Shown: positions 26,278 through 60,900 of the stretch, in pieces | Numbering within the stretch: the stretch's first letter is position 1 | Layout of the letters: each line of letters begins with the position of its first letter | Source of the DNA: Raillietiella orientalis | Lineage: Eukaryota | Assembly: GCA_036172245.1 (NCBI GenBank) | Contig: JAYWIR010000084.1 | Location: forward strand, 62,001-126,000 | DNA: 64,000 nucleotides | Direction of reading: 5' to 3' | Made by a program: the position numbers and the translations under genes | The notes under the pieces: generated by a model | Told to the model about the DNA's origin: nothing | The model's database searches: none | What the model saw: the letters and a program-made list of their open reading frames with translations, nothing else

Positions 26278-27461
26278 TCAAACGCCTTGCGTCCTCCAAG
26301 GTGGACGTGTTTTCTCGATGCTACTCGTGCCAGGAAGTCTCCCCCAGTGCAAACGTCGTGTGGTTCGGTGGTAGATCAGGCAGCGATGCCTGACGCGACC
26401 ACCAGGGATGGCCAGGGGGCAGCGGCAACGCCGCGCCCAGAGACGACGAAGAGCCAGGGGGCGGCGGCAACGTCGCACCCAGAAGCGATGGAGGTGGGGG
26501 CATCCGCCACTACAGAATCGGTTTCCGCTGCAGCGCGGGCGTAGAGCGCCGTTGTGTCGGCGCCATCGCCTGCAGCCGCGGCAGAATTGTCGGCCTATGT
26601 AGAGGAGGGGTACAACACCTCATTGTTCTACAAGGTAGGCAATCTATATTCTTTAGAGAGCGCGCGCGCCTTCTCGAAGGGCATGGGCGCTCTCGATGTG
26701 AAAGAGGAGGAGCTCAGCGCTATGACCTTCCGCAGCGGGGGTCAGTACGTGGAGGTGATCTGCAAACAAGCAGAGCTGGCCCAACGACTGCTTAAAACCC
26801 CCGTGGTGATGGGGACGCGCAGGCTCCTCGCTATTACGGTGGACCGCAGCATGGTGGTCCACCTGTTAGGTGTTACCGCGCGGATGCGCAAGGAACAGGT
26901 TCGCGCCGCGTTGGAAGAATACGGAACGGTGCACGCGCAGTGGACGAAAGTTAGTCCTTTCGAGGACTAAACGGGCTGCAACACGGCCTCACGGCTGTAC
27001 TCTTCCCCACAAACTGGTGGTCGAAGGCGAAACCGTCGACCTCTGGTATGTGGGGAAGCCGAAATACTGTGGCTTCTGCTATACGTGGGGCCACCTCAAA
27101 AAGAAGTGTTTCAATGTGCAGTGCTCAGTATGCGGAACCATGGGACACACGAGGGAGGTGTGCTTTAAACCAGCAGTGCAAGTAATTTCCAGGAGAAACC
27201 TTAAAAAACGTTCCCGGCTTCTGCAGAAAAGGCTGGCGGCGAAAATGCTGCGAAGGCTGTGCCACCCGAGCCCAAGGCCCAGGCCGCACACGAGACCCCG
27301 GCGAACAACGCCGAACAAGTCGAGGGAACTAACCAGGAGCCTGAGTGGCAGGTGAAAACGGCCAACGAATCAATAAAGGAGAGGAGGATGGAGAAAAAGC
27401 TCGCGTACCGCCAGAAAAAAGAGCAGGCAAGCGAGCAAATTAAAGAATGCAGCGTTGTAGT

Positions 27462-30400
27462 TTATTACCCGGTTGCGCCGGAACGTTTATTATAATATCA
27501 ACTGAGAACTGTGTTCCCAGGCAGGAGGAACAGAAAATGGGGAGTAGATTTCCCGGAACGCAATCCGGGCACACTCAGAGTTCGGAACGGGAGGGGGTGG
27601 GACAATAAATAAATAAACTGGGTGGGAGGGCGGGGACGGGGGTATACAGTCTAACCGTTCCTATTCTCAGAACCGGCGGTGAATGCCACCGATCTCCGTC
27701 CTCACTTCTGCTCCAAGATGTGGCCACCCGGCAGCCATTTGCAAATTGCAGACCGCGGTGTCGGGGATGGATGTTGGGACTGCTCGCATCTATAATACGT
27801 GGCGGGCCCTTACAATGGCGCGGACGCAGCAGATGATTGCGACGACCGCTCCAAGAGATAGACCGCCACGCGTGTAGAAGCGGCGCATCCAATGCAGTGC
27901 GGTGTGTCCAGGGTGCAGGAGCGCTGAAGACAGCCGCCGCCACAGCTCCTGGAGGGCACCGCACTCAAAGAGCAGATGCGGAAGCGATTCCACCGCTCCG
28001 CATGTTGCACAGTTCGGGGACGCAACTACCCTGGAAACAAGGTGCGCGCGCTGGTTGTAGTACAAAGCCCAATGCACCAGCAGAAAAGCATGCTGTTTCC
28101 AACGGAGGGAGAAGACACTCTCGTCCAAGCACGCAGAAGGGACCACAAGTTCTTCGGCGGGCACCCCGAGGAGCACGCTCCACTGGAGAAGTCCCGTGGC
28201 ACGGAGGCGAGGTGTGGTGGCGTCTGCCACTTCGCAAGTCCTCCAGCCGCCCAGCTGTTGAGTATCGCTTGCTATTTCGCAAGCGACCTCCCACCTCGCC
28301 GGTAGGTCATTGTCGTCTCGAACCATCAGATAAGACAGTGCTTCGGCGAGGGGCGTAGCGGCTAGGCGTGTCCACTGGACCTGGTCTTCCGGCACCTCAC
28401 CCACTGTACAGTATGGGGAAAGTTTCACGCAGCGGAGTTCCAAACGGGACACATCCTGTTGCGCTGCCCAGGACGATAAAGCTTCCTGCCTCCAGGCGTT
28501 GAAGTTCGTCGGCCGTCAGGAGATCCACTCATGCTTTCCAGAAGCGTGGCGAGCTGCTTCAAAGGGAAGCCGAATCCTCTCTGGGCGCGCTCCGTGCGCA
28601 GATGCAACGAACGTAGTCCGTCGCCACCCGTGCTGCGCCGCAGCAGCAGCCGCGCTGGAGCACACCAGGGAGTAGTCCAGAGCTGCGCACAAAGTGCCAG
28701 CATGCGGAACTGCACTAGCAGTCCGATCCGCTCCAGCGTCAGGATGTCCAATCCTGCATCCCGCCGAGGAGGTTTAATTCCTTCAGGAGTATCCTGGACC
28801 TCGCCGGTCCCCACAGGGCGTTACGCAACAGGCGTTGCGCCCAGCGCTTAGCCGAGTAGGGAGGGGGACAAACAAAAAAGAGGGGACGGAGGAGGGGTGG
28901 ACATGGTCAGGAGCAGGAGAATGTCGTCAGCATAGGCGGCCACGGCCGGTGTTCCCGGGCAGGAGCTCGGCAGGTTGGCCAGAGTCAGCCTGTACGCCCT
29001 TAGCACCAACTCAAAGAATATGCTGAAGAGCAGGGGGCTTAAGCTGTCTCCCTGTATGATGCCACGCCGTATGGAAATGCCGTACACGTGGCGGCCGCTG
29101 AAAGAGATACAGGATAACGCGTGGCGCCAGCAGAAGCGCAAGTAGGCGATAAGGTGCGTCGGGAGGCCTAGGCGTCCCAGAAGCTCCAGAAGGAGGTTTT
29201 GGTTTACGCTGTGGAACTCTTTTCAGAGATCAACGGCGACCGCTAAGGCCCCCGGCGTTCCATCGTGCCTTGAACACCGCCGCTTACCTTTGGAAGCGGC
29301 GATTTAGGCTGCCTGGCTCTGCTGCTCCACGCGCTGCTTGAACTCGAACAATGTTCGCGCGAAGAAGAGATTCGCGTGCATGGACCGCCCCGGAACAGCA
29401 TACGTGTGTTCCGGACTTACCAAGGACTCCGCGATTCTCCTCAGCCGCGAGACCCACAGCTTCGAGAACAACTTGACGTCCGAATTCACCAAGGTGAACG
29501 GACGCCGGCTGCTGAGGTGGCGCAAATCACCGCCTTTCGGCAGGAGCCGCACCTTTGCTGAGCGGAAAGAAGCGGGAACACCTCCCGTCTCACGCATCAG
29601 CGAGGAAAGGCTTAGCACCAGGGGGACGAGCTCCGCCGCGAAGCACTGAAAGAACTCCGCGGGCAGGCCATCCTCCCCAGGCGCCTTACGCTTCTTCAGG
29701 CCCGCTATGGCAAAAGATACTTCTTCCGCCGTGAAGGGCCAATTCAATCTGGCGCGTTCCTCCTCTTTGATAGCAGAGTTGCCCGTCGGAAGAAGCAGCT
29801 CGGAGAGACTGCGTTCCGTGGGCTCCTCCGCGTAAAACGAGGAGTAGTAGCGCTTGACTACGCGGTGTACTTTGGCTGCAGCCGAGCATTCCTGGCCAGC
29901 GTCATCGAGCAGACAAGCCGCTCCAGACTGCCAAACCTGGCGCTCGGCCCTGGCCTTATACTCCTCCAGACGCCGGACGTCCGGGCATCGTGAAAAGGTA
30001 CGCGCCTGCAGATAGGATCTGCTGTTCGCGACACCCTCCCCGAAGCCGCGGGGAAGCAGGTGCAAGAAGAACCGGCAGCAGAACTCGCGGACCGATCTTT
30101 TCAGATCGTCCCAGTCCTCGAGTTCACAGATGGCGAAGCCCCGGAGGTGTTGGCGGAGATGCTCCGCCGCCTCCGAATTGCTAAGCCAGTCGGCCGGCAA
30201 CCTCCAGACATTCATTAAAGGCCCTTTGCCTGGCAAGTAGAGCTCGAACTCCAGTCTAGGATGATCCGAAATCGCGGACAGCAGGCGCCCTCTCCGACCT
30301 ACTCGTGAGAGCAGGTGTTCATCGAGAAACGCATGGTCCGGCGATCTCTCCATCCCGGGCTCACCAGCAAGCAAGTTTTGCACGCGCACGGACGCGCATA

Positions 30401-32915
30401 CCTCGCTCACCAGTTGCTCCTCCCTCAAGCAGCATCTCTCCTCTGTTAGCAGGTGGACGTTGAAGTCTCCTGCAAGGAGGTGCGCCACGTAAGGGCCGGA
30501 GTCAGCGAGCCAGCGGCTGCGCAGGCCACCCAGGAATGCAAGTCGCTGGGCGTAATGCCGGCCGCCGCTCGGCGCGTAGATGTTCGTAACGACCAGGTCG
30601 ATCGATTCGGACCACTTGAGGACAAGTTGGCCCACACGACCTTCCTCGTCGAAACAAACGTTGCGGTCCGCCTCCGCCACCCTGCCTCGGACGAGGAACG
30701 CGACTCCGCACGTGTGCGCGGAGCCTTGCCGCCAGTGAAGCGTCCCGCCCGCGCGCTCTTTCAGATCCGATGCCTGCCGTACGGAGATGCTATGTATCTC
30801 CTGCAGCAGCACCAGATCGAACGCGCGCAAAGCGTTGGCTACCGTCAGCATTTTGTCAGCATCACGTAGCCCGTTGACATTCCAACAGGCCACGCTGACG
30901 CGACGAGCGGACGCGAGTCCACGCATCACTGCTGCGGACATGACGGCGTGCTCCTCGCTCTTCCGGCGAGAAGTCAGCTGGTAGGAGAGCGGATTGGGAA
31001 GCGGAATCGCTCCCGTTCGCCGCCACATCGCGCCCAGCTGAGTCCTGGGAGCCGAGGATCATCGCCTCGGTCTCCGTGCAGGAGCCGGAACCTACTCCGG
31101 CAACAGGCTCGTGCTTTCGCACTTTAGCCCGGCGCGCTACCGGCTTACCCCGGGATGCGCGCTCCATTTGTTTGCACTCGGACTCCACCTCGGAGTCCGA
31201 GTGCCTGGCGCGAGACTGGCGTTTTGCCAGTCTCTTTTTGTTTCGGCAGCTGGAGGCTTGCCCTGCCCGCGCGGGTGTCGTCGCAGTCGCCAACGCAGCT
31301 TCCGGAGCTTTGGCTTTCGCAGCCGCCCTCTCGCGCGAAACGACGGAGGCAGAGCACGCAGCCGTAGTGCGTACCTGGGTACGCACCTTCTTCGGCGTGC
31401 TTCTCTTTTGCCTCCCACCTAGCTTAAGGATGGGGAATATTGAAGGGTCAACCTTCTTCTTCCCCTTTGTGGGTGTCCTAGAGACTCGAGTCATCCCGCG
31501 TCGGGGACGCCCTCCTGGGAGGCCGACGCCTCCCTCAATTGTTTGGCCGGAGATGCCGGCTCACGTTTCGCGCTCGCGGCGGGAGACGGCTCCGTCCCCG
31601 TTACGCACTGCACCTGCTCCTTAGCGGATGCGGGCGAAACGGCGGTCATTGCCGTCGTCCCGCGAGGCGCTATTGCAGTCTTCGCTGCTCGTGCCTTCGG
31701 CGTGGAAGACGTGATCTCCACCGCCGTAGGAGGAGACTGCCGTTCAGAGGCAGCTCCGAGGGTACTCGCGCACGGTTTCCCGTGTGCTCCGCTGGACGCG
31801 CAAGCGGACGCGGACAGTTCAGCAGCCTTGATTGAGTGCGTTCTCGCACTCTTAGGCTGCTTCGAAGGGGGCGATTTGCCCCCAGGGCGACGTGGCATCT
31901 TTCCCGTCTGCGCGGTTGTCTGGGATGGTGGCTTTCCTGAAGCAACCGCGCCCTTTTTCGCGGGACCGCCACTTGAAGATGCCCCGCCCTTCGCGCCTGA
32001 TTTCTCCCGTGGCACAACGAAGGATCTTTTCGGCGCGGACGGGGTTGATTGTTGGCGGCTTTTCGCCTGCCTCTTTCTCTTCAGCTCGGCGCATTCTTTG
32101 ATGGAGTGGCCGAGCTGTTTACAATAGCGGCAGTTGCGTGAAGGGCACGTCCACGGACAGTGGCCCTCGGCACCGAAAATGCCGCAAGCCGGTCGCTGAC
32201 CGGCAAATTTAAGGTGGACGATCGCATCGCCCACCTGCAAGTGCGGAGGCATTTGCCTCCTATCCGCCATGGTGACACGCGCCATGGCAAGTCCGCTGTG
32301 GAGAGATGCAATCCTTTTGATCGGATTTTCTGCTCACCACAGCGCGTGCACCGTGGCGAATGCACTTAGTGCAGCGACGAGCACGCGATCCGGCGTGTCC
32401 ACCTGGACGGCGGATAAATGGACCACGAACGACTGGTCCAGGGCCGACGGGCCGACCTCCTTCCCGCGGATATTTAGCGGGGTGCGGAGAAGGCGCTAGA
32501 CTAGGGATGCCTCTTTGCTGTGCACCTCCCAGTGTCCGAGCGCGTTAACCGGCATGACGGCCAGGAGGTCGTCCTGTCGGACCCCGACGCGCAAAAGCTC
32601 GTCCCACAAATTTTCTCCGACCCCCTCGGAGATAGGAGCACTCACCGGATAGCAAAGCGCAGGCTTGTAGCCATGGGCTGCATATGCCTGCAGCTCTGCT
32701 TCGTCGGGCGGTGCTCCGTTGGCTGCCGCGGCCTTGAAGAATCAGAGGCGGACCGGACATCTGGAGTAGAGTCCCCGCTGCCAGTAGCAGCCTCCACATC
32801 CATCTTTTGCTGCAGGGGCACCGTGGACATCCCAGTGGACGCACTCGGGCACACCACACACAAGAAGATGGAAAGGAATCACGCTCGAGGAGAGACACAG
32901 AACACGTCAGTGCAC
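27462..32915 (-). mobile_element. Near full-length L1/Tx1-like element 'Q' nested antisense in ORF1 of 'P'
   Basis: 5' TGACGTGTTC, ORF1 with knuckle CRYCKQLGHSIKEC, ORF2 EN-RT-ZF and terminal motif at 27462-27491. TSD CGTTGTAGT (27453-27461) / CGTTGTCGT (32916-32924). The host reading CSVVV-ER is restored when Q is removed. Confidence 0.92.
29304..30926 (-). pseudogene. ORF2 of element Q: APE endonuclease plus RT N-terminus, premature stop
   Basis: Open frame with WNVNG, LQE, NIYAP, GDFN, SDH, KAPGEDGLPAEFF and RPFTLVNSDVKLFSK. Confidence 0.9.
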
Positions 32916-34674
32916 CGTTGTCGTCGAGCGTATTCCCGACCGTTGCGAAAAAGAACTCGCCGCTACCGACGACAACCCCTCTGTTGACTCTGTCAACAGC
33001 GAGGGGAGCGAGCCGGCGGCGGCGTCCGTCATCGACACCACCATCGATGACGTAGCCTTCGCGCGAGCCGCGGAGGAGCTGGCAGCCTCGTTGCAGCCAG
33101 AACCCTTCAAGGCTGGCAAGATTGCCGTAAGGCGAGGGGCCTCCCCTCAGGAGGCCCCCACTTCCGACCCCGAGGTGGAGGCTGGAAACGCAGCCTCCGT
33201 TTTCACGACACCGCGCAAGAAGGCTGGACGTAAGTCCACAAAGCCGAGGATGCTCGTCTCCCCCGTCGAGAGGGAAGAGATGGCTTCCGCAAGCGAGGGT
33301 GCCATGAGCGTGGGAAGCTCGCGGGACCCGTCGCACGACAGACTCCCACGCGCGGACACGGAGGGGATGGAGGGGGTTGAGACCAAACAGGTGCCTCACT
33401 TGCCTGAGAAGGCCGAAACCCCCATGGGCATCCCGCCCGCCTCGCAAGAGGCGATCTCCCCCACATTTTAATCTTCCCAGCAGTAATGCCGGGAATCTCC
33501 TCCCGCCGACGTCTGCGCATCGCCGTTTGGAACGTGAACGGCATGACAGACGCCGGCAGGAGACGAGACATGTCCGCCCTTCTGGAGTCCTTGCGCTCCT
33601 GCACGAGATCCACGTGATCTCTGCAGAAGAAGCGCAAGAGATCGAACGGATCTCCGGAGTGCGGCTATGGTACAGATGTGGGAGAGCTAAAACTTGCGCT
33701 GTCGCCTACCTGCTTCGGCCAGTCGTCGAGGCCGCGGCTCGAGGCGTGCGGTTCAACGATCACGGTCGTGTCGGCCAGCTGACTCTCAGTTGTTCCGACT
33801 CGATCGTTCTGATCGTCAAGAACGTGTACGCACCGAGCGGCGCGGACCTGATGACCAGGAGGGCGAGGAAAGAGTTTTTCCTTGCCCTCCGCCGAGACTG
33901 GCTGACCAAAGCAGGCATGCGGAATGCCCATCTGGTTGCAGGCGATTTCAACGTTCGCCTGAAACCAGATGGGCAGAATCCCGAGCGTGACCTGGTGAAC
34001 GAGGTGTGCATGCCGGTGCACACCCGTAATTTGTTGGCCAGTGCACCGGGGATGGAAGACAGCATTGACCTCGTGTTTCTTGACGAGCACCTGTGCCCTC
34101 GCTTGGGCTGGCGCGGCAAGTAACTGTGCGAGCTGTCCGACCATCGGCCGCTAGTCCTCGAGATCCATCCGCGCGACAGGGGCCCCCCCTCGTCAGCGTG
34201 GCGTCTCCCAGGGGACTGGCTGAAGCTCCCAGACGCGGAGGAACATCTCCGCACGTTCATACGAAGCTCCAGGCTGTGGACACTCCAGGATTGGGACCGC
34301 TTCAAGCGGTCGGTCCAGTAGTTCTGCGACCAGTTCCCTCTGCACCGCCTACCTACGAGTTTTGGGACCGAAATCCGTAACGAACGAGCCTACCTGCAGG
34401 CCCGACGTTACGCCAGGACCCTTGAATCCCGCAAGCTGGCGGAATACAGAGCGGGATCCGAGAGCCAAGCCTGGCAGTCCGGATCGGCCTGCTTGTTAAA
34501 CGATCAGGGCCAGGAGCACTCGGCATCCGCCCAAGTCCGCGGACTGCTGCGGAGTTACTACTCCTCCCGGTATGTTAGGGCAACTCCGGAGAGAAACGTC
34601 ACACGACTCCTGCTTCCGGAAGGCGCCCCAGCGATCGGGGAGAAGCAGAGATAGACCCTCGACGATTTCTCACG

Positions 34675-36903
34675 ATGGACGAGATGCTCTCGGCCATCGG
34701 AAAGCTCAAGAGGCGAAAGGCTCCAAGGGAGGACGGCCTGCCCGTGGAGTTTTACCAAACTTTCGCGGCTGAGCTTACCCCCCTGGTACAGCAACTCAAC
34801 TTGCTGATACGCAAGACAGGTGACGTTCCCGCCTCGTTTTGTTCGGCAAAGGTGCAACTCCTCCCTAAGAGAGGAGATCTGAGAAGCATGAACTACTGGC
34901 GTCCCATCACATTAGTAAATGCGGACGCCAAGTTGCTGGCTAAGGTTTGGGCAGAGCGTCTGGGACGGGTTGCCAACATCTTCATCAGCCCGGAACAGAC
35001 ATATGCTGTTCCCGGGCGAAGCATGGAGGCGAAACTGTTCCACGCTTCAACCTGGCTAGAGCTCCAAGAGAGGAGCTTGGTGCGCAGCCGGAATTCCGGT
35101 GCGTGTGCCGGCAAGGGGTTCGATGGTCGGGTGGGGGAGGGAGCCCTTGCGGTCGCAATCGACTTGCGGAAAGCATTCGATTGCGTCGACCAGAATCTCC
35201 TCCTGGATCTTCTGGAACGCTTCGGCTTCCCGGCCTCATTAGTAGCCTATCTGCTCTCCTGCTGGCGCGACGCGCTTATCAACGTTACTTTCAGCGGGCA
35301 GACCGTGCACGGGGTGCCGGTGCGGCGTGGGATCCGGCAGGGAGACAGCCAGGGCCCCTTGCTCTTCAGTACCTACTTTGACATGGTACTGAGAGCGTAC
35401 AGGGGAACTCTGGCGTACCTGCCGCACGACTGTGCCGGTACGCCGGTCGTTTCAGCGTACTTTGACGACCTTCTTCTGCTGCTTCCTATGTCCACTTCGG
35501 CTTCGGCGGTCGAGGAGTTCATCGACCTGTTGCATCGGGGAACCGGACTTAAGGTGAACAGGGCGAAGTCGTTCGTGATGCCAGTTGGTGCGGCGTGGGC
35601 AGAACAGCAGGACTGGGTCCGTTTGGGGATATCCACGGTGAGGTACTTCAAGTACCTTGGTGTGCCGTCGGGGGACGTCTCCCCTGCGGAAGCGTGGTCC
35701 TGCTGCCTCCAAAAAGTAAAGACGGCGATCGGCCCATTCCGAGGCGGCAGGTTTTTCCTGCCTGAACGGTTTGCGGTTTGGAACACGTTTGCGGCTCCTC
35801 TTCTCCGCCCTCTGCTTTTTGTATGCCCTCTCACAGAGAGGATAAAAAAGCCGACGAAGAAACTCGTCCGTATCGCCCTTTGGAGCAACGGGAGGGCCCG
35901 CGTCCGCTTAAAGGACTTGTTTGCTTCTCGTCGGGACCGTGGTCTCGGCCTACTGACGTTGGAGCGGCTGGAGCTTCAGCTCCAGTCTCGGATGTTGGCC
36001 ATTGTGCCGGAGTTGTGGTGCACATGCTGGTGCGTCCCTGCACGTCTCCTCGTCAAGGAAGTCACCGGGGAAATAGGACTCACGTCCTTTCTTACACTCC
36101 ATCGCTCATGCATCAACCGATGTGGGCTACAGCTGCGGAGGTTGGCTGCCTTGGTTTGCAAAAATCAAGGATGGATCACCTGTCGCCCCGCAAACGTCAG
36201 TGCCTGGTTGCAGGGTACCGTTCGAACGTGGGGAGAGTTCGGCATGCAACGTTCGCAACTGGAAGGAAGGTTCCTGTTTGGGGGTTACAGAAGTTGCACG
36301 CTTCGTGAGATCCTGAAGGATCCGAAGAAGCGAGCGTGGTCAGGAAGAACCCCCCTCGCTGCTGCGCTGGACTCCTTAGTGGAACATCAGGACAGCGATG
36401 TTGCGGCGAAGTGGGAGGTTACAATAAAAATCTACTGGAAGGAGATGAAGCAGAGAGAGTGGAAGACGGGCCAGTTAACTGATGCTGCGACCCCGAGTTC
36501 GCCTCCCAATGGAATTCTGCGCTGGGGTGCGCTGCTCGATGTTCCGATTGAACATCTGAAGTGGCTCGCGGTTCTTATGAACACTTCGATCCTCCCCTTA
36601 AAATGGCAAGAGTCGGCTCTCCTGTTGCAGCACTGGGGACTCCCCTGCAACGTTCGTCGACACCACTGGACTTGTGGATCGGTGGACCCCAATTGTGTAA
36701 GGTGCGGGGAACGGGAGTCCCTCCCCCAACTTCTAGTGGATTGTGTTTCCCTTCGGCCCCTTTGGTTCCGCTTTGTCGCGGATATCGGTATACCTTGCGG
36801 CAACCTCAGGGAAGCTCTAAAAGCCTTCTTCGTTTCCAACGCCCTTCGGCCAGCGTCTTCGATAGCAGCCTTGTGCTGCCTTCGTGGGATCGTCGCCGCA
36901 TGA
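34675..36903 (+). pseudogene. ORF2 of element P: RT and zinc finger (742 aa open stretch)
   Basis: KAPREDG, WRPITLVNADAK, DLRKAFD, GIRQGD, YFDD, KYLGV, CVRCGERESLPQLLVDC. The upstream endonuclease part is frameshifted. Confidence 0.92.
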
Positions 36904-37273
36904 AGCACGGCGACGGGAGGACCCAGCGATCAGGACGCCATCCAGTGCGCCTCCCAATTCCTGAGGAGGGCGTCGCGATGGCTTCACCTGGATGTTCTCA
37001 ACAAACAAGAGCTTTCCTGCATCCTGAGAGAGATGATGCGGCCTCAGCAGCATCAGTGATCCCTTCATGTTCCCTTCCATCCTTTGTTTCTTTTTGTTTA
37101 GTTTTTCGTTTTCCTCTTTCCCCCTGCTGCCGTGATGGACCGTACCGGTCTGCAAACTGGTGACCCGGCAGGCTCTGTGTTTATTCGTGCGTGCATGCAG
37201 CAATGGTCCAGCCACTGCACGTCTTTGAAATGTTTATTTTGTAATAAACGTCCCGGCGAAATCCGGGTGAAAA

Positions 37274-40200: not shown

Positions 40201-41145
40201 GTTTTCTTTCTTATTCATTCGCGGCTTTTATTTCGCGACGCGATACGCGCTTCGATCTTGCGCTTTTCGTTTTTCAAAACGAGCTCCGGTCACGTCTCTT
40301 TTGTGTGCCCGGGCTCGTGGCAGTAACGGCAAGCGGCCAAGGGACACTTCGTAAGGCGGTGTCTCTCCTGCCCACATTCCGCGCTCGCAAGCGTTTGCCC
40401 CGCAAACCACAGGCGGACGGTCATTCCATCCACCTGCAGTCGCGCAGGCATTGCCCAGCGATCCGCCATCGTCACTCGCACCTGCACAAGCCCCCCGTGG
40501 TGGTCTTCGAAACCCTCAGCAGGGTTTGGCAACCTCCAAAGCGCGTGAACGGAGGCGAATTTTCCAAGGGCCTCCACGACCTAGCGGTCTGAAAGGCCCT
40601 TGCTCACTCCACTTAGCCGGACAACGAACGACTGATCCGTAGTGGTGGGGAGTATTTCCTGCCCACCAATGAGCAGCGGCATGTGCAGCAAACGCTGCGT
40701 AAGGAGAGCGTCCTTAATGGACACCTCTCAGTAGCCGCACCCACTCATGGGCATGAGGGACTCCAGCTGATCTCTCTGAACTCCAATCCGTTGGAGTTCC
40801 TGGAGAAACTCGCGCCCAACTCGCTCAGGCATAAGGACACTTACTTTATACCTGAGTGCAGGCGTGTAGCCATTTGCTACATACGGCTGCAGCTCAGGGC
40901 TGTCAAGCGAAGGTCCCATTGTAGCCGCGAGCGCAGCGACCTAAACGAACGTCCTCGCCGTCGGCGAGGACAGTGGCTCTATGCTAGCAGCCGAAAACGC
41001 CATCTCAGGAGCAGGTACCGTTCCCGTCTTGCGGCTAAAGTTCTAACTTGCTCCCATTGCAGCACAAAAGCACAGAATGACAAAAACGCACAAGAGTGAG
41101 CCTACCGCGGAGCGACGCAAAAGCACGTCCGTACGCGACCGGCGC
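37274..41145 (-). mobile_element. L1/Tx1-like element 'R', 5' end to RT, cut exactly at the KAFD motif
   Basis: GGACGTGCTTTT at 41119-41130, ORF1 with knuckles, TAATG at 38969-38973, endonuclease, and RT ending ALDFHKAFD at 37274. Confidence 0.9.
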
Positions 41146-46278: not shown

Positions 46279-46327
46279 CTACCACACGGACAACCAAAAC
46301 CTAGTCTCACTTACCGAGAATTTCAAA

Positions 46328-50015: not shown

Positions 50016-53000
50016 TTTTCACCCGGATATGCGGGGGCATTTATTCAAAAGAATAAAATTACAATTAATTTTCGCGTGTTCAATTCAAAGGTCCACCACT
50101 ACAAAACAGCTTGGTATTTACCGGCGCTATGCCGGAGAGGTCCATCCGATGCGCGGGGGTTGGGAAAGAAAAAAAAAAAAAACAAACAAATAGTGGAAGT
50201 ATAGGAGGGAACAAATGTTTCGGGAATGGGAGGGCAGGGAGGGGATGACCGTGCGCGCGGATAAATCCTCTAGATCCTATTCAGGATCCGTACAAGCTGA
50301 GTCCACCCTGCGCCCAAGTGGCGCCACTTGCAGACGTCTAGGACGAATAGGCGAGTGAACCGTAAGGCGTTGCCGGTTGGCTGACGTCTTCTTCTGGTGG
50401 CGTTCCAAGCCGTCACGATCCCTCGAATGCAGCAGAGGACTGCTACAGAAGAGGGGGTGGACAAGGCGTCACTACGGAAGAGGAGCCTGGAAACGTCCTT
50501 AGTGCCGCATCCGCGCAAGTCCAGGATCGCCGTAAGGCGATCCCATAAAGGGCGGATGGCACTGCACTCGATGAGAAGGTGGGGGAAGGTCTCTTTTTCC
50601 CCGCACCGGTCACAATAAGGATCCACAGCCCCCCGGGTTGTGTGATGAAGGCGTGCTTTGAATGGAAGTCCCCAGAGGACCACAAGGAACGCCACATCTT
50701 GCCATTTCAGGTGGAGGCATCCACTGTTCCAGGACGCCGGGGGCCACTTTATCTCCTCTGGAGATAGTCCGAGTAGCTCGCCCCAGCGTCGAATTCCGTT
50801 GGGCGGGACTCTCGGCGTTGCAGCGTCCGCTAGCTGCCGAGATGTCCACGCCATAATCGTTTGTGTCCTGCCTCCAATGGTGCAGGACACGTTCCATTTC
50901 CCAAGCTCCCTACTGTCCCTGGCGTCGATTAAGAAGGGCAGCACTGGGGCAAGGGGGTTATCAAAGCCCACATGCGCTTTTCGTGGGACTGCACGATCTC
51001 CTGCAGTTTCCAGCGAACGTGCCTTTGCAGGCAAGTGTTTCTTGTGCCCGCCGAAACGTGGATCTTTACCCAGGTGGACACTGACTCGTGCAGTCATGCA
51101 GAGTAGTTCCCTGAGCGGCAGGAGATCCAGGCGTTCTCCCGTACCGCAACTTCCATGCGACTCAGGATTAAGCAGCCGTGTGCTTCTCTGCGGTCGCGTA
51201 TCAGCAGAAACGACAAAAGTCCGTCGAATCCGCAGGCTCGTTGGGCCAGGAGGCGTGCTGGAACGCACCAAGGTTTGTCCCACAATCCGGCCACGAGGGC
51301 GAGGGTCCTAAATGTCAATTGAACTTCCATGCGCTCCAGCGTAAGAACGCCAAGTCCTCCGTCCTTACGTGGAGCGCACAAGTCTTTGAGCCTCACACGG
51401 GACCTCCCTTTGCCCAAAAGGACTGTCCTCAGGAGGCCCGCTGCTCGTTTACGGATGAAGTAAGGGGCGGGGCACACAAAAAGTAGGGGGCGAAGAAGGG
51501 GGGCCGCAAACGCGTTCCACACCGCGGCCCGTTCCTGCAAGTAGAGCTTTCTTTCTTGGAACGGACCGGTCGCCAGCTCTGCCTTTTGGAGACGGTCGTA
51601 CCAGGCTTCTGCTGCGTAGAAGTCCTCCAACGGAACGTCAAGGTACTTGAAGCACCTGCCCGTGGGGATCCCCAAGCGGATCCAGTCCGACCGTCCAGCC
51701 CACGCCGAGCCGACGTGCATCATAGACGACTTCACTCTGTTCACCTCCAGGCCCGTCCCGCGGCGCAGCAACTCGAAGAAATCCTCGAGCGCACTCGCCG
51801 GGGTGGACCCGGGAAGCAGCAGCAGATCGTCTGCATAGGCCGACACGGCAGGCGTGCCGGCACACGAGCTCGGCAGGGTTGCCAGAGTTACCCTGTATGC
51901 CCTCAGCACCAACTCGAAGTAGATGCTGAAGAGCAAGGGGCTCAGGCTGTCACCCTGCCGGATGCCGCGGCGTACGGGCACGCCGTACACGTGCCGGCCG
52001 CTGAAACCAATATTGATTGACGCGTTGCGCCAGCAGGAGCGCAGGTAAGATTGAAGCACGGCAGGGAAACCAATGCGTTCCAGGAGCTCCAGAAGGAGAT
52101 CCTGGTCGACGCAGTCGAATGCTTTGTGCAAATCGACCGCGACGGCAAAGGCTCCCGCCGAGTCCATCCCACCCCCTGCCCGATCTTATTGGTCAGAGGG
52201 GCGCGCGAGGCTCCCTTGACCGTCCTGAGCAACGCGTTGTCGCAACTGCCACCATGAGCTGGCGAGGAGCAGGTTTGCCTCCATGGTTCGTCCGGGAACA
52301 GCGTAGGTCTGCTCGGGACTCACCACGGAAGCGGCCACCCGCCCCAAACGCTCAGCCCACAACTTAGCATACAACTTTGCGTCCGCATTCACTACTGTGA
52401 TGGGACGCCAGTTGCCAATGTTGCGTAAGTCTCCTGACTTCGGCAGGAGACGTACTGTTGCTGACCGGAACGAGGCGGAAACTTCGCCGTGTTCGCGGAT
52501 CAGCGCACTTAACCTGAGCACCACGGGGGCCAGCTCTGGCGCGAAGCGATGGTAAAACTCCGCGGGCAGGCCGTCCTCCCCTGGTGCCTTCCTTTTCTTG
52601 AGCCTGTTGATGGCGGAGATGATCTCCGCCATCGTGAACGGTTCCGCCAATCTGGAACGGTCCTCCTCCTTGAGCGCGGGAGCACCATCCGGCAGCAGGC
52701 GCTGCGCGAAATGGCGCTCAGGTGTTAGTGGCGCGTACAAGGAGGAATAAAACTCCCGCACGATGCGGCTAACCTGGGCTGGGCTGGAGCGTTCTTGGCC
52801 CTGATGATCCAGCAGGCAGGCCGAGCCTGACTGCCAGGCCTGCCTCTCCGCCTCAGCCTTGAATTCAGCCAGGCGACGGACGTCGGGACGCCGGGAATAA
52901 AGGCTCGCCTGGAGGTACGCCCGCTCGTTCCTGACACCCTCACTGAAGCCCGGCGGAAGACGTTCCAGGGGAAACTGGTCGCAAAACTCACGGACTGAGC

Positions 53001-53185: not shown

Positions 53186-53719
53186 AACGCTAGAGTGCTT
53201 GCGTGCAAAAGCAACGCCGACTCTTGCCACTTGAGGGGCAGGATCCTGGATTCTTTAATCACCGGGAGCCACTTCAGCTCATCCCTGGGGATGGCGAGCA
53301 GCTCGCCCCCTTTTTAATAATGCTCGCGGCTGGACGCTCGGGCTCGTGGCGTCAGCCAGTTCTCCTGTTGTCCAGCCGCTGATCAACTTCTCGCGTCCAT
53401 CGTTGCAGCAAGAGACCTGCCACCTTGGCGTCCGGCTGCTGTGAAGTGCCCTCTTCAGGAAGGGCAGCGCCGTAGCTAGACAGGTCGTCTCTGCCCACGT
53501 GCATCTTGCTGGACTCTCCAGGAGATTCCGCAGCGTGCAGCGGGCGTAGGGGCTGCGTCGGAGACGATTCCACGTCTAGGGGCTTCTCTGGTTAACAACT
53601 GCCCACGTTGCAATATTCTCCTTCAGCGAGGCGGGGGAGTTGGCGGGGCAGCAAACCATCCAGCTGTTCTCCTTGGCCAATGTTGCCATACGCCCGAGCA
53701 TTAGGCCGCATCTTCGCCG

Positions 53720-54970
53720 TCCGTCGCTGAACTCGATCGCGACGGAAACGGCAAAGGGAGGCTCGTCGCCCCGGGGGCAGTCTCGGGAACGGCTATGCGG
53801 TCCAGTGCCACTGTACATTCCCGCATTGTCTTGGAACGCGGCCCAGGTTTCTTCGCCTTGCCGGCAGTCTTTTTGACCGCTTCCGCGGTTTCAGCGGGGG
53901 GCACCTTTTTTTTTTTCCTGGCCTTAACCAGCTGCCAGCCGTCCTATTCTCCCGCGTTTTAGGAAGGTTTTTCTTCCGACGCCTGTGTGGGAGGAAAGGG
54001 GGCTTGCGGCTACTGCCGGCAAGTATCTCTTTTTGGTCTTTCGAACAATTTTCCTCGTTTTTCCTGCGCTTTCTTTGCGGCAGGCGGCACCGGAGTGGGA
54101 TGTTCAGGGCACACACGGCGCACGTGGCCCTTCTCCCCGCATATGTGGCACACAATGTTCGGGCACCGCTTTCGCAAGTGTCCTACTGCATTGCAGGAGC
54201 CACAAAAGCGGGGTTTCCCCACGTACCAGAGGTCTACGATTTCGTCATTGACCTTTAGTTTGTGGGGAAGCCCAATCTCCTTCACCGTCACGCGCGCGGC
54301 GGCATGCCCTCCGAAAAGGCTATCGTAGCCATCGAAGATTGTAACCTTTGGCCATAGCGCGTGAACATCGCCATATTTTCTTAACTGATCACCAACCGCA
54401 GACCGCGTCATGCGGCTAGTGATCCGTGTCAGATGGACCACTACAAAGCGGTCCATCGTGACGGGTGGGATCTTGCGTCCGTCCACATTCAGCGAAGTAG
54501 TAATCAAGCTTAGTTCCAAGGTGATGTCCTTGCAGACAACCTCGACGCGCTGACCCCCGCTGAGCACAGATAGACCGTCAAGATCCTTCTCTAACACGTT
54601 GTCGTTCTGCAGCGCCTTCCAAGAAGCGCGTCCAGTTCGCCCGTCAATGAGATTGCCTACCTAGTACATGAGGTTGGGCTTGTATCCACCTGCCCGGTAG
54701 GCCGCCATCTCGGCCATGGTTTCCGCGCTCGGCGCGGCCATCATGGCGCCCCAGCTCCTCGCTTTGGGCGGCGAGGGTGATTCCGGGGCCGACGCTCCTG
54801 ATTCTGTAGGCTGTGGGGGTGGGCGAACCTCGTCTACACCTACCTCCATCGTGGTGTCCTCAGGCATCGCTGACATCGGACACCAACGATGTTGCACACA
54901 AAAACACACAGAGAAAAAACCACTTCGTGTCGACTCGCTCTGGAGCTCAGGAAAACACGTCCACTCGATA
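53720..54970 (-). mobile_element. L1/Tx1-like 5' UTR and ORF1 (family of 13850-15200)
   Basis: GGACGTGTTTT at 54952-54962; CGSCNAVGHLRKRC and CHICGEKGHVRRVC. Confidence 0.9.
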
Positions 54971-54982
54971 AGGAATTCGGCG

Positions 54983-57900
54983 TTGTCACCCGGGTACGCC
55001 CGGGACGTTTATTTGTAAACTCTACATGCGTGGTACGAGGCCCCACAACGGCCATAAACACGCAACCTGTCGGGATACCGGGACGCAGCCCGCCGTGGTA
55101 CTCCCCGACAGCGAAGAAGGATGGGGATAAGACAAAAAGAAAAAGAAAAAGAAACAAACAAAAAGAAGTTGAAGGGCGAAGAAGGGATCACTGGTTACTG
55201 TGGAGAGGGCCCATCCGTAGAACGAAGCCCTCGAGGTCAGTCTGTATATTTCTTAGTAGGGGCCATCCAACAGCTCTTCGCAAGAAGCGTTGGGCATACG
55301 GGATCACATCCCTCGCCTGTGGACCCACTCCTTCGTTGTTGGCGTCGCTCCATGTCGCCACGATGCCACGCACGCACCACAAGGCTGCAATGGCTGCGGC
55401 TGGCTGCAGTGCGTCCTTCACGAAGAGGGGCCGAAAAATGTCTCTGAAGGTGCTGCCGGTAGGGAGCCCGAGGGTCGTCCAGAACCGTTTCCAAAGGGGT
55501 CGGAGGGCAGCACAATCCACAATAAGTTGGGAAAGCGACTTCCGCTCCCCGTACCTGGCACACGCAGGATCCACAGCTCCGCTCGTCCAGTGGAAGCGGC
55601 GCGCGTTGCAGTGTAGACCCCAGTGCAACAAAAGCAACGCCGACTCTTGCCACTTGAGGGGCAGGATCCTGGATTCTTTCATCACCGGGGGCCACTTCAG
55701 CTCATCCCTGGGGATGGCGAGCAGCTCGCCCCCTTTTTAATAATGCTCGCGGCTGGACGCTCGGGCTCGTGGCGTCAGCCAGTTCGACTGTTGTCCAGCC
55801 GCTGATCAACTTCTCGCGTCCATCGTTGCAGCAAGAGACTTGCCACCTTGGCGTCCGGCTGCTGTGAAGTGCCCTCTTCAGGAAGGGCAGCGCCGTAGCT
55901 AGACAGGTCGTCTCTGCCCACGTGCATCTTGCTGGACTCTCCAGGAGATTCCGCAGCGTGCAGCGGGCGAAAGGGCTGCATCGGAGACGATTCCACGTCT
56001 CGTGGCTTGTCTGGTTAACCACTGCCCACGTTCCAATATTTTCCTCCAGCCAGGCGGGGGAGTTGGCGGGGCAGCAAACCATCCAGCTGTTCTCCTTGGC
56101 CAATGTTGCCATGCGCCCGAGCAGTAGGCCGCATCTTCGCATCTTCCGGCCACGGCTGAGAAGAAAAGACGCGAGTCCATCGCACCGGGACACACGGCTG
56201 ACCAGGAGGCGGGCCGGAGTGCACCAAGGGGTGCACCACATCTTCGCTGCGATGGCAAGGGTTCGCCACCGCAGCTGCTTCTCCAGTCGCTCCAGAGTCA
56301 GGAGGCCAAGACCTGCGTCCTGACGCGGAGCGCACAAGTCCTTCAGTGAGACTCGGGGCCTCCCATTTCCCCAAAGGGCGATACGGAGGAGGGCCTTCGT
56401 CCTTTTCTTGGATTCCACGGTGGGAGGGCAAACAAAAAGCAAATGGTGGAGGATAGTGCCGCGAAGGCGTTCTAAACCGCGGCCCGTTCTGGCAAGTTAA
56501 ACTTGCCTTCCAGGAACGGGCCGATCGCCGTCTCGACTTTTTGGAGGCAGCTGGACCACGCTTCCGCAGGGGAGTAGTCCCCCAACGGCACACCAAGGCA
56601 CTTGAAGCACCTCGCCGTGGGGATCCCCAGACGGACCCAGTCCTGCTGCCCTGCCCACGCCGCACCTATTGGCACAACCGACGACTTCGCCCTGTTAACC
56701 TGCAGGCCGGTCCCGCGGCTGAGCAGATCGAAGAAGTCTCCGACCGCCTTTGCCGGGGTGGACATTGGCAACAAAAGCAGAAGATCGTCGGCGTACGCTG
56801 CTACGGCGAGAGTGCCGGGGCACGAGCTCGGCAATGGGACCAAAGTCACCCTGTACGCTCTCAGCACCAACTCAAAGTAGGTGCTGAAGAGCAGGGGGCT
56901 GAGGCTATCTCCATGCCTTATGCCCAGCCGCACCGGCACGCCATAAACCTTATGACCACTGAAAGAGACGGTAATCATCGCATTCCGCCAGCAAGAGCGC
57001 AGGTAGGAAATCAGGGAGGGTGGGAAGCCCATGTGACCCAGGAGCTCCAAGAGAAGATCCTGGTCTACACAGTAGAACGCCTAGTGCTCTCCAGGGTGGA
57101 CGTATTTTCTCGGTGCTCCTCGTGCCAGGAAGTCTTCCCCAGTGCAAGCGTCGTGTGGTTCGGTGGACGATCAGGCAGCGATGCATGACGCGACCACCAG
57201 GAATGGCCAGGGGGCAGCGTCAACGCCGCCCCCAAAGGCGATGGAGAGCCAGGGGGCGGCGGCAACGTCGCCCCCAGAGGCGATGGAGGTGGGGGCATCC
57301 GCCCCCACAGAATCGGTCCCCGCTGCAGCGCGGGCGTGGAGCGCCGTTGTGTCGGCGGCATCGCCTGCAGCCGCGGCGGAATTGTCGGCCTATGTAGAGG
57401 AGGGGTACAACCCCTCATTGTTCTACAAGGTAGGCAATTTGTATTCTTTGGAGAGCGCGCGCGCCTTCTTGAAGGGCATACGCGCTCTCGATGTGAAAGA
57501 GGAGCTCAGCGCTATGACCATCCGCAGCGGGGTTTAGTACGTTGAGGTCCTCTGCAAACATGCAGAGCTGGCCCAACGACTGCTTAGAACCCCCGTTGTG
57601 ATGGAGACACGCAGGCTCCTCCCCACTACGGCGGATCGCATCATGGTGGTCCACCTGTTAGGTGTCACCGCGCGAATGCGCAAAGAACAGGGTCGCGCCG
57701 CTTTGGAACAGGTCGGAACGGTCCACGCGCAGTGGACGGAAGTAAGTCCTTCCGAGGACTACACGGGGCTGCAGCACGGCCTCACTGCTGCGCGCGTGAC
57801 CGTTCGGGAAGGCTGCACTTTTCCCCACAAACTGGTGGTCGAAGGCGAAACCGTCGACCTCTGGTATGTGGGGAAGCCGAAATACTGTGGCTTCTGCAAT

Positions 57901-60900
57901 ACGTCGGACCACCGCAAAAAGAGGTGTCCCAATGTGCAGTGCCAAGTATGCGGCACAATGGGCCACACGAGGGAGGTGTGCCCCAAAGCAGCAGCGCGGG
58001 TGGTTTCCAAGAGAAAACCTTAAAAACGCGCCCGGCTTCTGCAGAAAAGGCTGGCGGCGAAAGCTCTCGCGAAGGCTGTGCCACCCGCGCCCAAGACCCA
58101 GGCCGCACCCGATACCCCGGCGACCAACGCCGAAAAAGTTGAGGGAGCCGGCCAGGAGACTGGGTGGCAAGTGGCAACGGCCAAAAAATCAAAGAAGGAG
58201 AGGAGGATGGAAAAGAAAATCGCCTACCAACAGAAGAAGAAAGAGCAGGGTAGCGCGATAATTAAAGACTGCAGCGTCGTTGTCGAACGCGTAATCGATG
58301 TTGCCGAACGCTGCCGGAAAGAACTAGCCGCTACCGACGACCTCTTCTCTGTTGACACAGTCAACAGCGAGGGGAGAGAGCCGGCGGCGGCGTCCGTCAT
58401 CGACACCACCATCGATGAAGTAGCCTTCGCGCGAGCCGCAGAGAAGCTGGCAGCTTCGTTGCAGCCAGAACCCTCCAAGGCTGGCAAGAAGGCCGTAAGG
58501 CGTCCGGCCTCCCCTCAGGAGTCCCCCACTTCCGACCCCAAGGTAGAGGCCGGAAGCGCAGCCTCCGTTTGCACGGCACCGCGCAAGAAGGCTGGACGTA
58601 AGTCCACAAAGCCAAGGAAGCTCGTCTCCCCCGTCGTTATCACCCGGGTACGCCCGGGGTGTTTATTAATGAACTTTACATGCGTGGTACAAGGTCCCAC
58701 CACGGCCGTAAACACAGGACCTGTCGGGACACCGGGACGCAGCCCTGCATGGCACTCCCCGACAGCGAAGAAGGATGGGGATAAGACAAAAAGAAAAAGA
58801 AAAAGAAACAAACAAAAAGAAGTTGGAGGGCAGGGAAGGGATCACTGTTCGCTGTGGAGAGGGACCATCCGTCGAACGAAGCCCTCGAGGTCAGTCTGCA
58901 TATTCCCCAGTTGGGGCCATCCGGCAGCTCTTCGCAAGAAGCGTTGGGCATACGGGATGACATCCCTCGCCTGTGGACCCACTCCTTCGTTGTTGGCGTC
59001 GCTTCATGCCGTCACGATGCCACGGACGCAGCACAAGGCTGCGATGGCTGCGGCTGGCTGCAGTGCGTCCTTCACGAAGAGGGCCCGAAAGACGTCTCTG
59101 GGGGTGCTGCCTGTAGGGAGCCCGAGGGAAGTCCCGAACCGTTCCCAAAGGGATCGGAGGGCAGCACAATCCACAATAAGGTGGGGGAGTGACTCCCGCT
59201 CCCCACACCAGGCACACGCAGGAACCACAGCTCCCCTCGTCCAGTGGAAGCGGCGCGCGTTGCAGAGTAGACCCCAGTGCAACAAAAGCAACGCCGACTC
59301 TTGCCACTTAAGGGGCAGGATCCTGGATTCCTTCATCACAGACGGCCACTTCAGCTCATCCCTGGGGATGGCGAGCAGCTCGCCCCATCTTAATAATCCT
59401 CGCGGCTCGACGCTCGGGGTCGTGGCATCAGCCAGTTCTCCTGTTGTCCAGCCGCTGATCAACTTCTCGCGTCCCTCGATGCAGCAGGAGACTTGCCACC
59501 TTGGCGTCCGGCTGCTGTGAAGTGCCCTCCTCAGGAAGGGCAGCGCCGTAGCTAGGCAGGTCGTCTCTGCCCACGTGCATCTTGCTGGACTCTCCAGGAG
59601 ATTCCGCAGCGTGCAGCGGGCGTAGGGGCTGCATCGGAGACGATTCCACGTCTCGTGGCTTGTCTGGTTAACCACTTCTCACGTTCCAATATTGTCCTCC
59701 AGCCAGGCGGGGGAGTTGGCGGGGCAGCAAACCATCCAGCTGTTCTCCTTGGCCAATGTTGCCATGCGCCCGAGCAGTAGGCCGCATCTTCGCATCTTCC
59801 GGCCACGGCTGAGAAGAAAAGACGCGAGTCCATCGCACCAGGACACACGGCTGGCCAGGAGGCGGGCTGGAGTGCACCAAGGGGTGCACCACATCTTCGC
59901 TGCGATGGCGAGGGTTCGCCACCGCAGCTGCTTCTCACGCGCTCCAGCGTCAGGAGGCCAAGACCGCCGTCCCGCGCGGAGCGCACAAGTCCTTCAGAGG
60001 GACTCGGGGCCTCCCCTTGCCCCAAAGGGCGATACGGAGGAGGTCCTTTGTCCTCTTCTTTGTTTCCACGGTGGGGGGGCAAACAAAAAGCAAGGGGCAG
60101 AGGATGGGGGCCGCGAAAGCGTTCCAAACCGCGGCCCGTTCCTGCAAGTGGAACTTGCCTTCCAGGAACGGGCCGATCGCCGTCTCGACTTTTTGAAGGC
60201 AGCTGGACCACGCTTCCGCAGAGGAGTGTTCCCCCAACGGCACACCAAGGTACTTGAAGCACCTCGCCGTGGGGATCCCCAGACGGAACCAGTCCTGCTG
60301 CCCTGCCCACGCGGCACCTATTGGCACAACCGACGACTTCGCCCTGTTAACCTGCAGTCCGGTCCTGCGGCTGAGCAGATCGAAGAAGTCTCCAACCGCG
60401 TTTGCCGGGGTGGACATTGGCAACAAGAGCAGAAGATCGTCGGCGTACGCTGCTACGGCGGGCGTGCCGGGGCACAGGCTCGGCAATGGGGCCAAAGTCA
60501 CCCTTCACGCTCTCAGCACCAACTCAAAGTAGGTGCTGAAGAGCAGGGGGCTGAGGCTATCTCCATGCCTTATGCCCAGCCGCACCGGCACGCCATACAC
60601 CTTGTGACCACTGAAAGAGACGGTAATCATCGCATTCCGCCAGCAAGAGCGCAGGTAGGAAATCAGGGAGGGTGGGAAGCCCATGTGACCCAGGAGCTCC
60701 AAGAGAAGATCCTGGTCTACACAGTCGAACGCCTAGTGCGCTCCAGGGTGGACGTATTTTCTCGGTGCTCCTCGTGCCATGAAGTCTTCCCCAGTGCAAG
60801 CGTCGTGTGGTTCGGTGGTCGATCAGGCAGCGATGCCTGACGCGACCACCAGGAATGGCCAGGGGGCAGCGTCAACGCCGCCCCCAAAGGCGATGGAGAG

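Follow-up and report, generated by a model that had tools for sequence, protein, structure and literature searches.

The 64,000-nucleotide stretch of Raillietiella orientalis DNA analysed here, referred to as the window (GCA_036172245.1, contig JAYWIR010000084.1, positions 62,001 to 126,000, forward strand), forms the border of a cluster in which L1-like long interspersed nuclear elements (LINEs) are mutually nested over 52 kb or more. One lineage of these elements, P, was found to be inserted site-specifically and in antisense orientation, with an 11-bp duplication, at the codons for Lys-Ala-Phe-Asp (K-A-F-D, or KAFD) in motif A of the reverse transcriptase (RT) of other LINEs. Sequence comparison supports at least three independent insertions at the same codons, in hosts of three different LINE lineages. 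The P lineage, together with its relatives Y and H2, probably integrates by target-primed reverse transcription at this specific site of about 11 bp.

The target site reads TCGAACGCCTT in the sense of the element and AAG GCG TTC GA in that of the host, where it encodes the K-A-F-D of RT motif A, with the point of insertion, 5'-AAGGCGTTCGA^C-3', just after the catalytic Asp. The motif aligns to ..DFAKAFDTV.. in the PDB chain 8gh6_A, which we take to be silkworm R2. The four junctions that a first-pass annotation of the window had placed at this site (26278, 37274, 57073 and 60725) were all found by inspection of the sequence to be present as described. The elements and site copies concerned, with the apurinic/apyrimidinic endonuclease-like domain abbreviated as APE and open reading frames as ORFs, are the following:

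21657..23108, plus strand: Y, an internally deleted element of the H2/P clade, with its 3' end at the site-like core GCGTTCGA (23111-23118), 8/11
25608..26277, plus strand: P2, a 5'-truncated 3' fragment of a P-lineage LINE, ending ..CGGGTGAAAA (80.3% identity to 36608-37275; 3' stem and tail)
26278..26288, no strand assigned: left duplication of P1, a target-site copy (TCAAACGCCTT, 10/11 of the site consensus) with P2 ending before it and P1 starting after it
26289..27460, plus strand: 5' part of P1, with the motif GGTGGACGTGTTTTC at 26300 and the ORF1 region (87.8% identity to 60725-61932)
27461..32916, minus strand: Q, a full-length LINE of another lineage nested in P1 (APE and RVT_1 matches)
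32917..37273, plus strand: 3' part of P1, with the 3' stem and GAAAA end (RVT_1 E=1e-20; human L1 ORF2p E ~1e-28)
37274..37284, no strand assigned: right duplication of P1, with the site copy TCGAATGCTTT (in the H1 RT frame as its reverse complement, AAA GCA TTC GA)
37285..41142, minus strand: H1, a Q-clade LINE of which the 5' half is present, ending in K-A-F-D(GA) exactly at the cut (tblastn with P residues 31-201, 50.9%, E=4.7e-46)
41143..43590, plus strand: Qlike, a 5'-truncated copy of the Q lineage, 3' end at 43585, followed by TCGAA (43586-43590) (95-96% identity to Q)
43591..43836, minus strand: P(J4), a diverged element of the P lineage of which the first 246 nt are present (72% identity to P1)
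43837..45022, plus strand: H3, the RT of an R-clade LINE from the decayed site AAGGATATCCA (43837-43847) onwards (tree support 93/96 with R/R2)
53718..54965, minus strand: Ra, with its 5' end adjoining the decayed site 54970-54979
54983..57083, minus strand: H2 copy 1, RT from KAFD (site 57073-57083) to the 3' end (sequence matches)
57084..58636, plus strand: P(J3a), the 5' 1.5 kb of a P-lineage element (85-86% identity to P1)
58637..60735, minus strand: H2 copy 2, a tandem duplicate with the site copy 60725-60735 and its 3' end joined to P at ..CCCCCGTCG^ (repeat match)
60736..62291, plus strand: P(J3b), the tandem duplicate of P(J3a) (repeat match)
62292..64000, minus strand: H2 copy 3, partial, running off the window (repeat match)
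52115..52125, minus strand: KAFD site of R, AAAGCATTCGA, intact and unoccupied (motif match)
35170..35180 (plus strand, P1), 41523..41533 (plus strand, Qlike) and 29212..29222 (minus strand, Q): other intact KAFD sites

At the first junction the 3' end of P2 (26277) and the 5' end of P1 (26289) are separated by the 11-mer TCAAACGCCTT only, and the two P copies are thus stacked at one site, as had been noted. The first-pass annotation had P2 begin at 25672; its 3' end was right, but the homology begins already at 25608. It had also given 26289-37273 as one P copy, which was correct for P1 itself (about 5.5 kb, 26289-27460 and 32917-37273), while the interval also contains the nested minus-strand Q (27461-32916), flanked by a 7-bp duplication of its own (GTTGTAG/GTTGTCG, 27454-27460 and 32917-32923). 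The right end of P1 at 37273 is followed by TCGAATGCTTT, which is identical to TCAAACGCCTT in 8/11 positions of the target-site duplication; the differences are transitions only, two of the three at CpG. Immediately to the right, the minus-strand RT of H1, ..GALSVALDFHKAFD (..DFHKAFD), ends after the GA of the Asp codon. H1 includes a 5' end near 41131, ORF1 (40224-40928), an APE region (38359-39007) and the RT N-terminus.

At the sites 57073-57083 (TAGAACGCCTA) and 60725-60735 (TCGAACGCCTA) the minus-strand RT of H2 begins, reading (K>stop)AF(D/Y)CVDQDLLLE, and adjoins the 5' end of P. These two had been presented as separate cases, but the segments 54978-60343 and 58632-64000 are 95.8% identical over 5372 nt and form a tandem repeat with a period of 3654 bp, and the two junctions are therefore one event. 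The tandem array (54978-64000) includes at least 2.5 units with 93-96% identity, the third being partial, and each unit consists of H2 from KAFD to the 3' end on the minus strand and the first 1.5 kb of P. In units 2 and 3 P is joined to the H2 3' end at ..CCCCCGTCG^, and in unit 1 the corresponding place is taken by a decayed site and the 5' end of Ra. Because the units differ in their joins, the array mixes retrotransposition junctions with unequal crossing-over.

An additional junction was found at 43837-43847, where the plus-strand RT of H3 adjoins the 5' end of P(J4) on the minus strand; H3 reads 'KDIH' at the decayed site and then CFDQELLVEL... In all the KAFD junctions P is inserted antisense to the host RT. 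The 5' joins of full-length copies are precise and the 11-mer is duplicated, and the duplicated site has been re-used to form head-to-tail stacks at 26278 and at 54970-54988. At the latter stack the 3' end of H2 copy 1 is followed by the decayed site (54970-54979, AAGGAATTCG in host sense), with the 5' end of Ra adjoining. The idea that the P 5' end is itself antisense RT sequence was rejected: the tblastn extension to residue 175 was spurious, and a comparison by eye gave 7/21 identities.

For a comparison with chance, 14 true 3' termini were chosen by eye from regular expression matches (AATAAA and the stem, at the end of ORF2 homology), and H2 copy 3 was dropped as a duplicate of copy 2, leaving 13 independent termini. 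A terminus was scored as matching the site if, no more than 4 nt away from it, 8 or more of the 11 positions agreed with TCGAACGCCTT. Five of the 13 termini matched the site, compared to 0.9% of 200,000 random positions (binomial p=7e-8): P2 with 10, P1 and Qlike with 9, and Y and H2 copy 1 with 8 of the 11 positions. At least 8/11 was also reached by 3/10 of the 5' termini (P1 10, P(J3a) 9 and Ra 8; p=0.003). The 5' end of P(J4) has a match of 7/11, and in all three independent P 5' ends (10/11, 9/11 and 7/11) the site ends exactly 11 nt before GGTGGACG. The 17-mer GGGTGAAAATCRAAYGC occurs three times in the window, 0.05 occurrences being expected. Among the 31 positions with at most two mismatches from AAGGCGTTCGA, five are at element termini and three are intact RT sites. 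Altogether 3/7 of the distinct RT copies that reach the KAFD position are cut there.

The stacks 13835/13857 and 54988/54965 were counted as a single site. They are linked by one high-scoring segment pair (HSP) with 73.7% identity over 1950 nt, and the former is probably an old duplicate of the latter, judging from this similarity. The duplicate is inverted and takes in the whole stack (13032-14925 vs 55811-53905, 73.7% identical): a 3' part resembling H2, then a decayed site, then a 5' part of the R type. Copying within the cluster has thus involved composites as well as single elements.

The independence of the events was assessed from trees. In the maximum likelihood tree of the RT region after KAFD (11 copies, 1721 columns), H3 grouped with R/R2 (93/96). 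H2 joined Y first and P1/E19391 next (99/98), and the third clade was formed by Q, Qlike and E16464. A clade of H2 and H3 was rejected by the approximately unbiased (AU) test (p=1.6e-4). The tree of the RT region before KAFD placed H1 with Q/Qlike (100/100). R, P1, Q and Qlike all have an intact KAFD. The three cut hosts are thus in three clades, each with relatives intact at KAFD, and a single ancestral cut cannot explain them. Also the inserted elements differ, P(J3) being 86-88% and P(J4) 72% identical to P1. The earlier statement that host RTs of different families are cut at KAFD agrees with these trees, and the possibility raised together with it, that all junctions go back to one copied insertion, is made improbable by them within the window.

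What is targeted is best read as a nucleotide motif with the core GCGTTCGA, rather than as the KAFD peptide, because the 3' end of Y lies at GCGTTCGA(CG) within a minus-strand APE domain, where the sequence reads R-A-F-D (CGT GCG TTC GAC G, 23111-23118), and not in an RT. The codons AAAGCATTTGAT are an example of a synonymous KAFD variant, as against the site-bearing AAGGCGTTCGAC. The core is present exactly five times in the window (2.6 expected), and three of the copies are at termini (23111, 43586 and 60725); another, at 58283 in P(J3a), is at the position that matches the entry point of Q in P1. The proposed targeting of KAFD therefore stands as far as the same codons were hit in three lineages, but it must be reworded for a nucleotide motif and for a specificity that is leaky, not absolute, and that is common to the P relatives Y and H2. 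The 3' flanks begin with CG or TCG in 9/13 cases, and the nicked strands of off-site relatives often end in these letters.

The LINEs of the window have a common 5' end, GGTGGACGTGTTTTC, and a common 3' end made of AATAAAC, a 5-bp stem (CCCGG/CCGGG), T and then 4-5 nt (GAAAA, AATAA, GATAA or GACAA). All 13 of the 13 LINE 3' ends in the window close with these 4-5 nt, and no poly(A) or A-rich tail was present. The AATAAA is located 27 nt ahead of the element end, and the RNA 3' ends should consequently fall near or just past the boundary.

In the proposed mechanism, the first nick would be made on the host sense strand after TTCGA, the end of AAGGCGTTCGA, and the P RNA would be reverse transcribed from the 3' OH of this nick, the second nick following on the other strand 11 nt upstream. 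The endonuclease of the element would recognise the site, perhaps aided by a short, site-derived RNA 3' tail (..GAAAA-UCGAA) pairing with the nicked TTCGA. Transcripts that extend past the source copy by a few bases, into the site downstream of it, would have such a tail; where the nick is at a true site the tail would pair with TTCGA, and where the nick is ectopic the tail would end up in the insert as a copy. The 3' end of Qlike is followed by TCGAA and then by the host, the native sequence of which is GCGCGGGCG, and all three other P copies read GCGCG|GGCG at this insertion point; the TCGAA, which equals the first 5 nt of the site, was probably carried in by the RNA. In E19391, 12 extra nt, TTGAATTCAAGC (19379-19390), are found between the stem and the native host sequence. 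If these ectopic tails of Qlike and E19391 are site-derived, as their sequences appear to be, they suggest pairing between RNA and target. The available text of PMC5035012 mentions that similarity between the 3' untranslated region (UTR) and the target may stabilise the intermediate in other target-specific elements that lack long terminal repeats (non-LTR elements).

Several observations weigh against site-specific integration in this form. Only a single window of 64,000 nt was analysed, and the preference rests on about six distinct site copies. Of the five site-matching 3' ends, that of Qlike more plausibly represents a carried tail than a target, and the site of H2 copy 1 and Ra is decayed and has the old duplicate at 13032-14925. 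The motif is uncut in four RT copies that carry it (AAAGCATTCGA twice, AAAGAGTTCGA and AAAGAGTTCCA), the core GCGTTCGA at 30817 in the APE domain of Q is unoccupied, and so are near-matches such as 16681 and 56464. E19391, the sister of P1, sits at the unrelated TCCGGA^ATC, as judged from the uninterrupted paralogue 17560-17700, H2 copy 2 is at CCCCCGTCG^, and the flanks of R, R2, Q, X21517 and E15207 are unrelated to the site (3-7/11 matches). The comparison of H1 with H2 and H3 concerns non-overlapping halves of the RT, so that their separate lineages presuppose non-recombinant elements, and the branch of H3 is long (0.42). To the left of P2 lies a fragment of the R clade instead of the other half of H1, and the locus has thus been rearranged. 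The pairs of the 3' stem did not show covariation (0/5); they are invariant, the stem being conserved. Finally, the role of the element's endonuclease as the reader of the site is a putative one.

Of the other explanations, the least credible is that insertion is unspecific, elements landing at random and surviving only inside the LINE cluster, with the 11-mer a coincidence or a microhomology used in 5' joining; we regard this as practically dismissed. The cluster does resemble a graveyard with many elements at other sites, but a retention bias accounts for the nesting and not for the same nucleotide in three lineages, nor for the enrichment at the 3' ends (p=7e-8), the three occurrences of the 17-mer against 0.05 expected, or the site duplicated at both ends of P1. 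Descent from a single ancestral P insertion in one RT gene, multiplied as segmental or tandem duplicates or through retrotransposition of the composite RNA, with later divergence, is also highly improbable. The junctions 57073 and 60725 are copies of exactly this kind, the 13835 stack resembles an old duplicate of the 54988 stack, and the junctions of P(J3) and P(J4) align with each other in one HSP across the junction (71.5% over 499 nt). However, H2 and H3 are not sisters (AU test, as above), each being nearer to an RT with intact KAFD (P1 and R, respectively), H1 belongs to a third clade, and P1, stacked on another P, has the site at either end as a duplication. The occurrence of a site-like match also in an APE domain speaks in the same direction.

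More weight, although it still appears unlikely, can be given to a target memory based on the RNA alone, in which a loose nick (..CG^ or TCG^A) would be followed by landing through pairing of a read-through 3' tail, derived from the site that the source copy occupies, with the same sequence at another place, the specificity being inherited by location and not lying in the protein. The CG or TCG at the beginning of 9/13 3' flanks, the AATAAA 27 nt before the element end, the TCGAA brought by Qlike to a locus that is not a site and the 12 extra nt at E19391 would all fit this, as would the role of a stabiliser given to 3' UTR-target similarity for other target-specific elements in the available text of PMC5035012. 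On the other hand, the pairing energy of a 5-nt tail is small, and Q, which is 95% identical to Qlike, is free of a tail at its junction. Nicks set by a protein on both strands are indicated by the stagger, constant at 11 bp, and by the precision of the 5' junctions, and loose nicking predicts many more off-site P copies than the one found among six P-lineage termini. Site-specific target-primed integration by the P lineage and its relatives remains our preferred reading, with the RNA tail in a possible assisting role.

If integration proceeds in this way, every functional LINE of this kind would carry the site, as GC-rich K-A-F-D codons next to the catalytic Asp. The landing site would then be multicopy and mutation-resistant, each insertion would destroy the RT of the host, and LINE-only clusters would grow. 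The 'safe haven' and the inactivation of competitors suggested in the first-pass annotation may be read from the same arrangement. A wider reading is put forward tentatively, and with less confidence than the integration mechanism: P may be a hyperparasitic LINE lineage that homes to the RT codons adjacent to the catalytic Asp in any co-resident LINE, its own kin included. Since drift in the KAFD codons would be fatal to the host element, the target would be self-renewing, with each new LINE copy or duplicated site forming a landing pad, and rivals would lose their RT as LINE-only clusters resembling centromeres were built by the process itself.

Domain matches support the placement of the elements in the L1 superfamily of APE-type non-LTR retrotransposons, with the exception that poly(A) is lacking. 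In P1 the APE region is at 33308-34120, the 774-aa RT ORF at 34579-36900, and its own KAFD is intact. The APE domain PF03372 was detected in Q (E=2e-12) and at 18532-19440 (E=5.9e-11), and weakly, below the cut-off, in P1 (E=0.0074); L1 endonuclease structures match the APE part with E ~5e-6. RVT_1 was found with E=1e-20 in P1 and E=1.2e-8 in Q. The best PDB matches for the RT were chains of human L1 ORF2p (E=2e-28 to 1e-27), those of R2 being weaker (1e-11 to 1e-12), and among solved structures human LINE-1 ORF2p is the best relative of the APE part as well as of the RT part. For a C-terminal zinc-binding region, the zf-RVT domain PF13966 reached 18.8-25.8 bits, under the cut-off of 27.5, in four relatives (Q 27793-28515, Qlike 42198-43154, R 50273-51307 and H2 59007-59678), and no match to it was found in the P1 ORF.

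A protein search of 5.8 billion sequences gave one close homologue, P0001, with 66% identity and an intact KAFD (..DLRKAFDCVDQ..). The remaining matches had at most 29% identity, the named ones being plant and fungal L1-like proteins with 23-29%. A metagenome scan with the RT alignment produced 118 pattern matches with no relative among them. The scan with the 19-mer of the 3' end and site produced 30 loci, none of which had blastn or tblastn similarity to P, Q or R, and these were thus chance matches.

The decayed, mutually nested LINEs fill the window from about 11.8 kb rightward, so that nesting and head-to-tail stacks span at least 52 kb of the single window examined. The GC content is 55-63% from about 11.8 kb to the right end and 39-48% in the left flank. 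Pfam matches to the endonuclease (PF03372), the RT (PF00078), weakly to zf-RVT and to CCHC knuckles were distributed on both strands. Rfam and tRNA scans of the window gave no match, and the target site is thus not part of a known RNA gene. A lower-GC island within the cluster includes an ORF (46133-46588, plus strand) with a circovirus-type replication protein (Rep) domain (PF02407 Viral_Rep, E=4.8e-12), which is probably a Rep fragment of an endogenous circular Rep-encoding single-stranded (CRESS) DNA virus.

Some of the composite structures did not correspond to single elements. The interval 50019-54965 (minus strand) was rejected as one full-length element 'R', being a mosaic of the 5' UTR and ORF1 (53718-54965), an ORF2 without most of the APE domain (50019-53187) and a middle piece of 512 bp (53206-53717) that is 96% identical to part of H2. 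Also R2 (23854-25609) was rejected as the missing half of H1, as the trees place the two in different clades. A minus-strand RT fragment of 135 bp (21520-21655), with 88.7% identity to P1, lies between two plus-strand elements, the 3' end of one and the 5' end of the other, Y; together with an APE fragment at 23118-23408 it suggests that the insertion of Y deleted about 1.2 kb of a P-lineage host.

Two head-to-head joints have no spacer: at 25608/25609 a 5'-truncated R2 (minus) meets the 5'-truncated P2 (plus), and at 41142/41143 the complete 5' end of H1 (minus) meets the 5'-truncated Qlike (plus). Both go beyond simple nesting and likely reflect a deletion or another joining process. At 47791 and 48914 (plus strand) two 5' ends of one ORF1-bearing family lie in the same orientation 1.1 kb apart, with 83-85% identity, the 48914 copy being inserted near the ORF1 end of the 47791 copy. 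The 3' end of R enters the 48914 copy at the homologous region (..GTCCGCG^), and the insertion of Q in P1 is likewise at the ORF1 end, possibly another hot spot of insertion. A second near-match to the target site (AAGGCGTTTGA, AAGGCGTTCTA and similar, in plus-strand coordinates) is present on the antisense strand of the RT C-terminal region at homologous positions in R (51509) and H2 (56464 and 60116), with a fourth at 16681; all four are unoccupied.

If the site-specific reading is true, the active-site RT codons of other LINEs would form a new target class, and P would be a clear case of a selfish element that parasitises and disables its rivals. There would also be a testable nucleotide-level rule for the growth of LINE-only clusters, centromere-associated ones included. 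A specificity of 11 bp in an L1-type protein, perhaps aided by an RNA tail, would be relevant to directed retrotransposon-based insertion.

Known site-specific LINEs insert in genes for rRNA, tRNA and snRNA, in microsatellites, in telomeres and in a small number of transposons; Tx1L, for example, inserts in the DNA transposon Tx1D. The APE LINEs of the R1 and Tx1 clades, as described in the portions of the sources available, likewise use one defined sequence in a multicopy target, with precise ends and a target-site duplication. Unlike their targets (an RNA gene, a microsatellite or a DNA transposon), the target here is formed by the RT motif A codons of other LINEs, in antisense. No description of a LINE target in RT-motif codons was found in the literature searched (full text). 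P is a genuine site-specific LINE, and measured against this literature its type of target is new, the site specificity of LINEs itself being already known. Transposons are among the target classes listed for target-specific non-LTR elements in the available text of PMC4640811 and PMC5035012.

Human LINE-1 ORF2p is the best solved relative of the APE and RT parts (E ~1e-28). In L1 the target is loosely defined and the tail is poly(A), unlike in the elements of the window, which end with GAAAA after a conserved stem and have a specific site of 11 bp. Homing endonuclease genes and inteins reside in conserved active-site motifs, where the target is unable to mutate without loss of function. The logic is shared as an analogy, mechanism and element type being entirely different.

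The Zepp and ZeppL elements of green algae are, in the accessible text, L1-type LINEs found almost only in clusters, and the window likewise shows nested, head-to-tail arrays. The available parts of the Zepp papers (PMC8226300, 10.1101/2022.06.16.496473, 10.1101/2025.03.28.645958 and 10.1101/2024.02.27.582245) name no target nucleotide sequence, and neither do those of the papers on Chlamydomonas and Chlorella; the likeness drawn here is of cluster habit. The hyperparasitic reading, if true, would offer a sequence-level mechanism for the Zepp-type behaviour of targeting existing copies. R2 and R1 in the 28S ribosomal DNA likewise exploit an invariant stretch of an essential multicopy sequence, and for them, too, similarity between the RNA 3' end and the target has been proposed to stabilise the intermediate, according to the available text of PMC5035012. 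R2 differs in having a restriction-like endonuclease and a host gene as its target, whereas here the 'gene family' exploited consists of other selfish elements.

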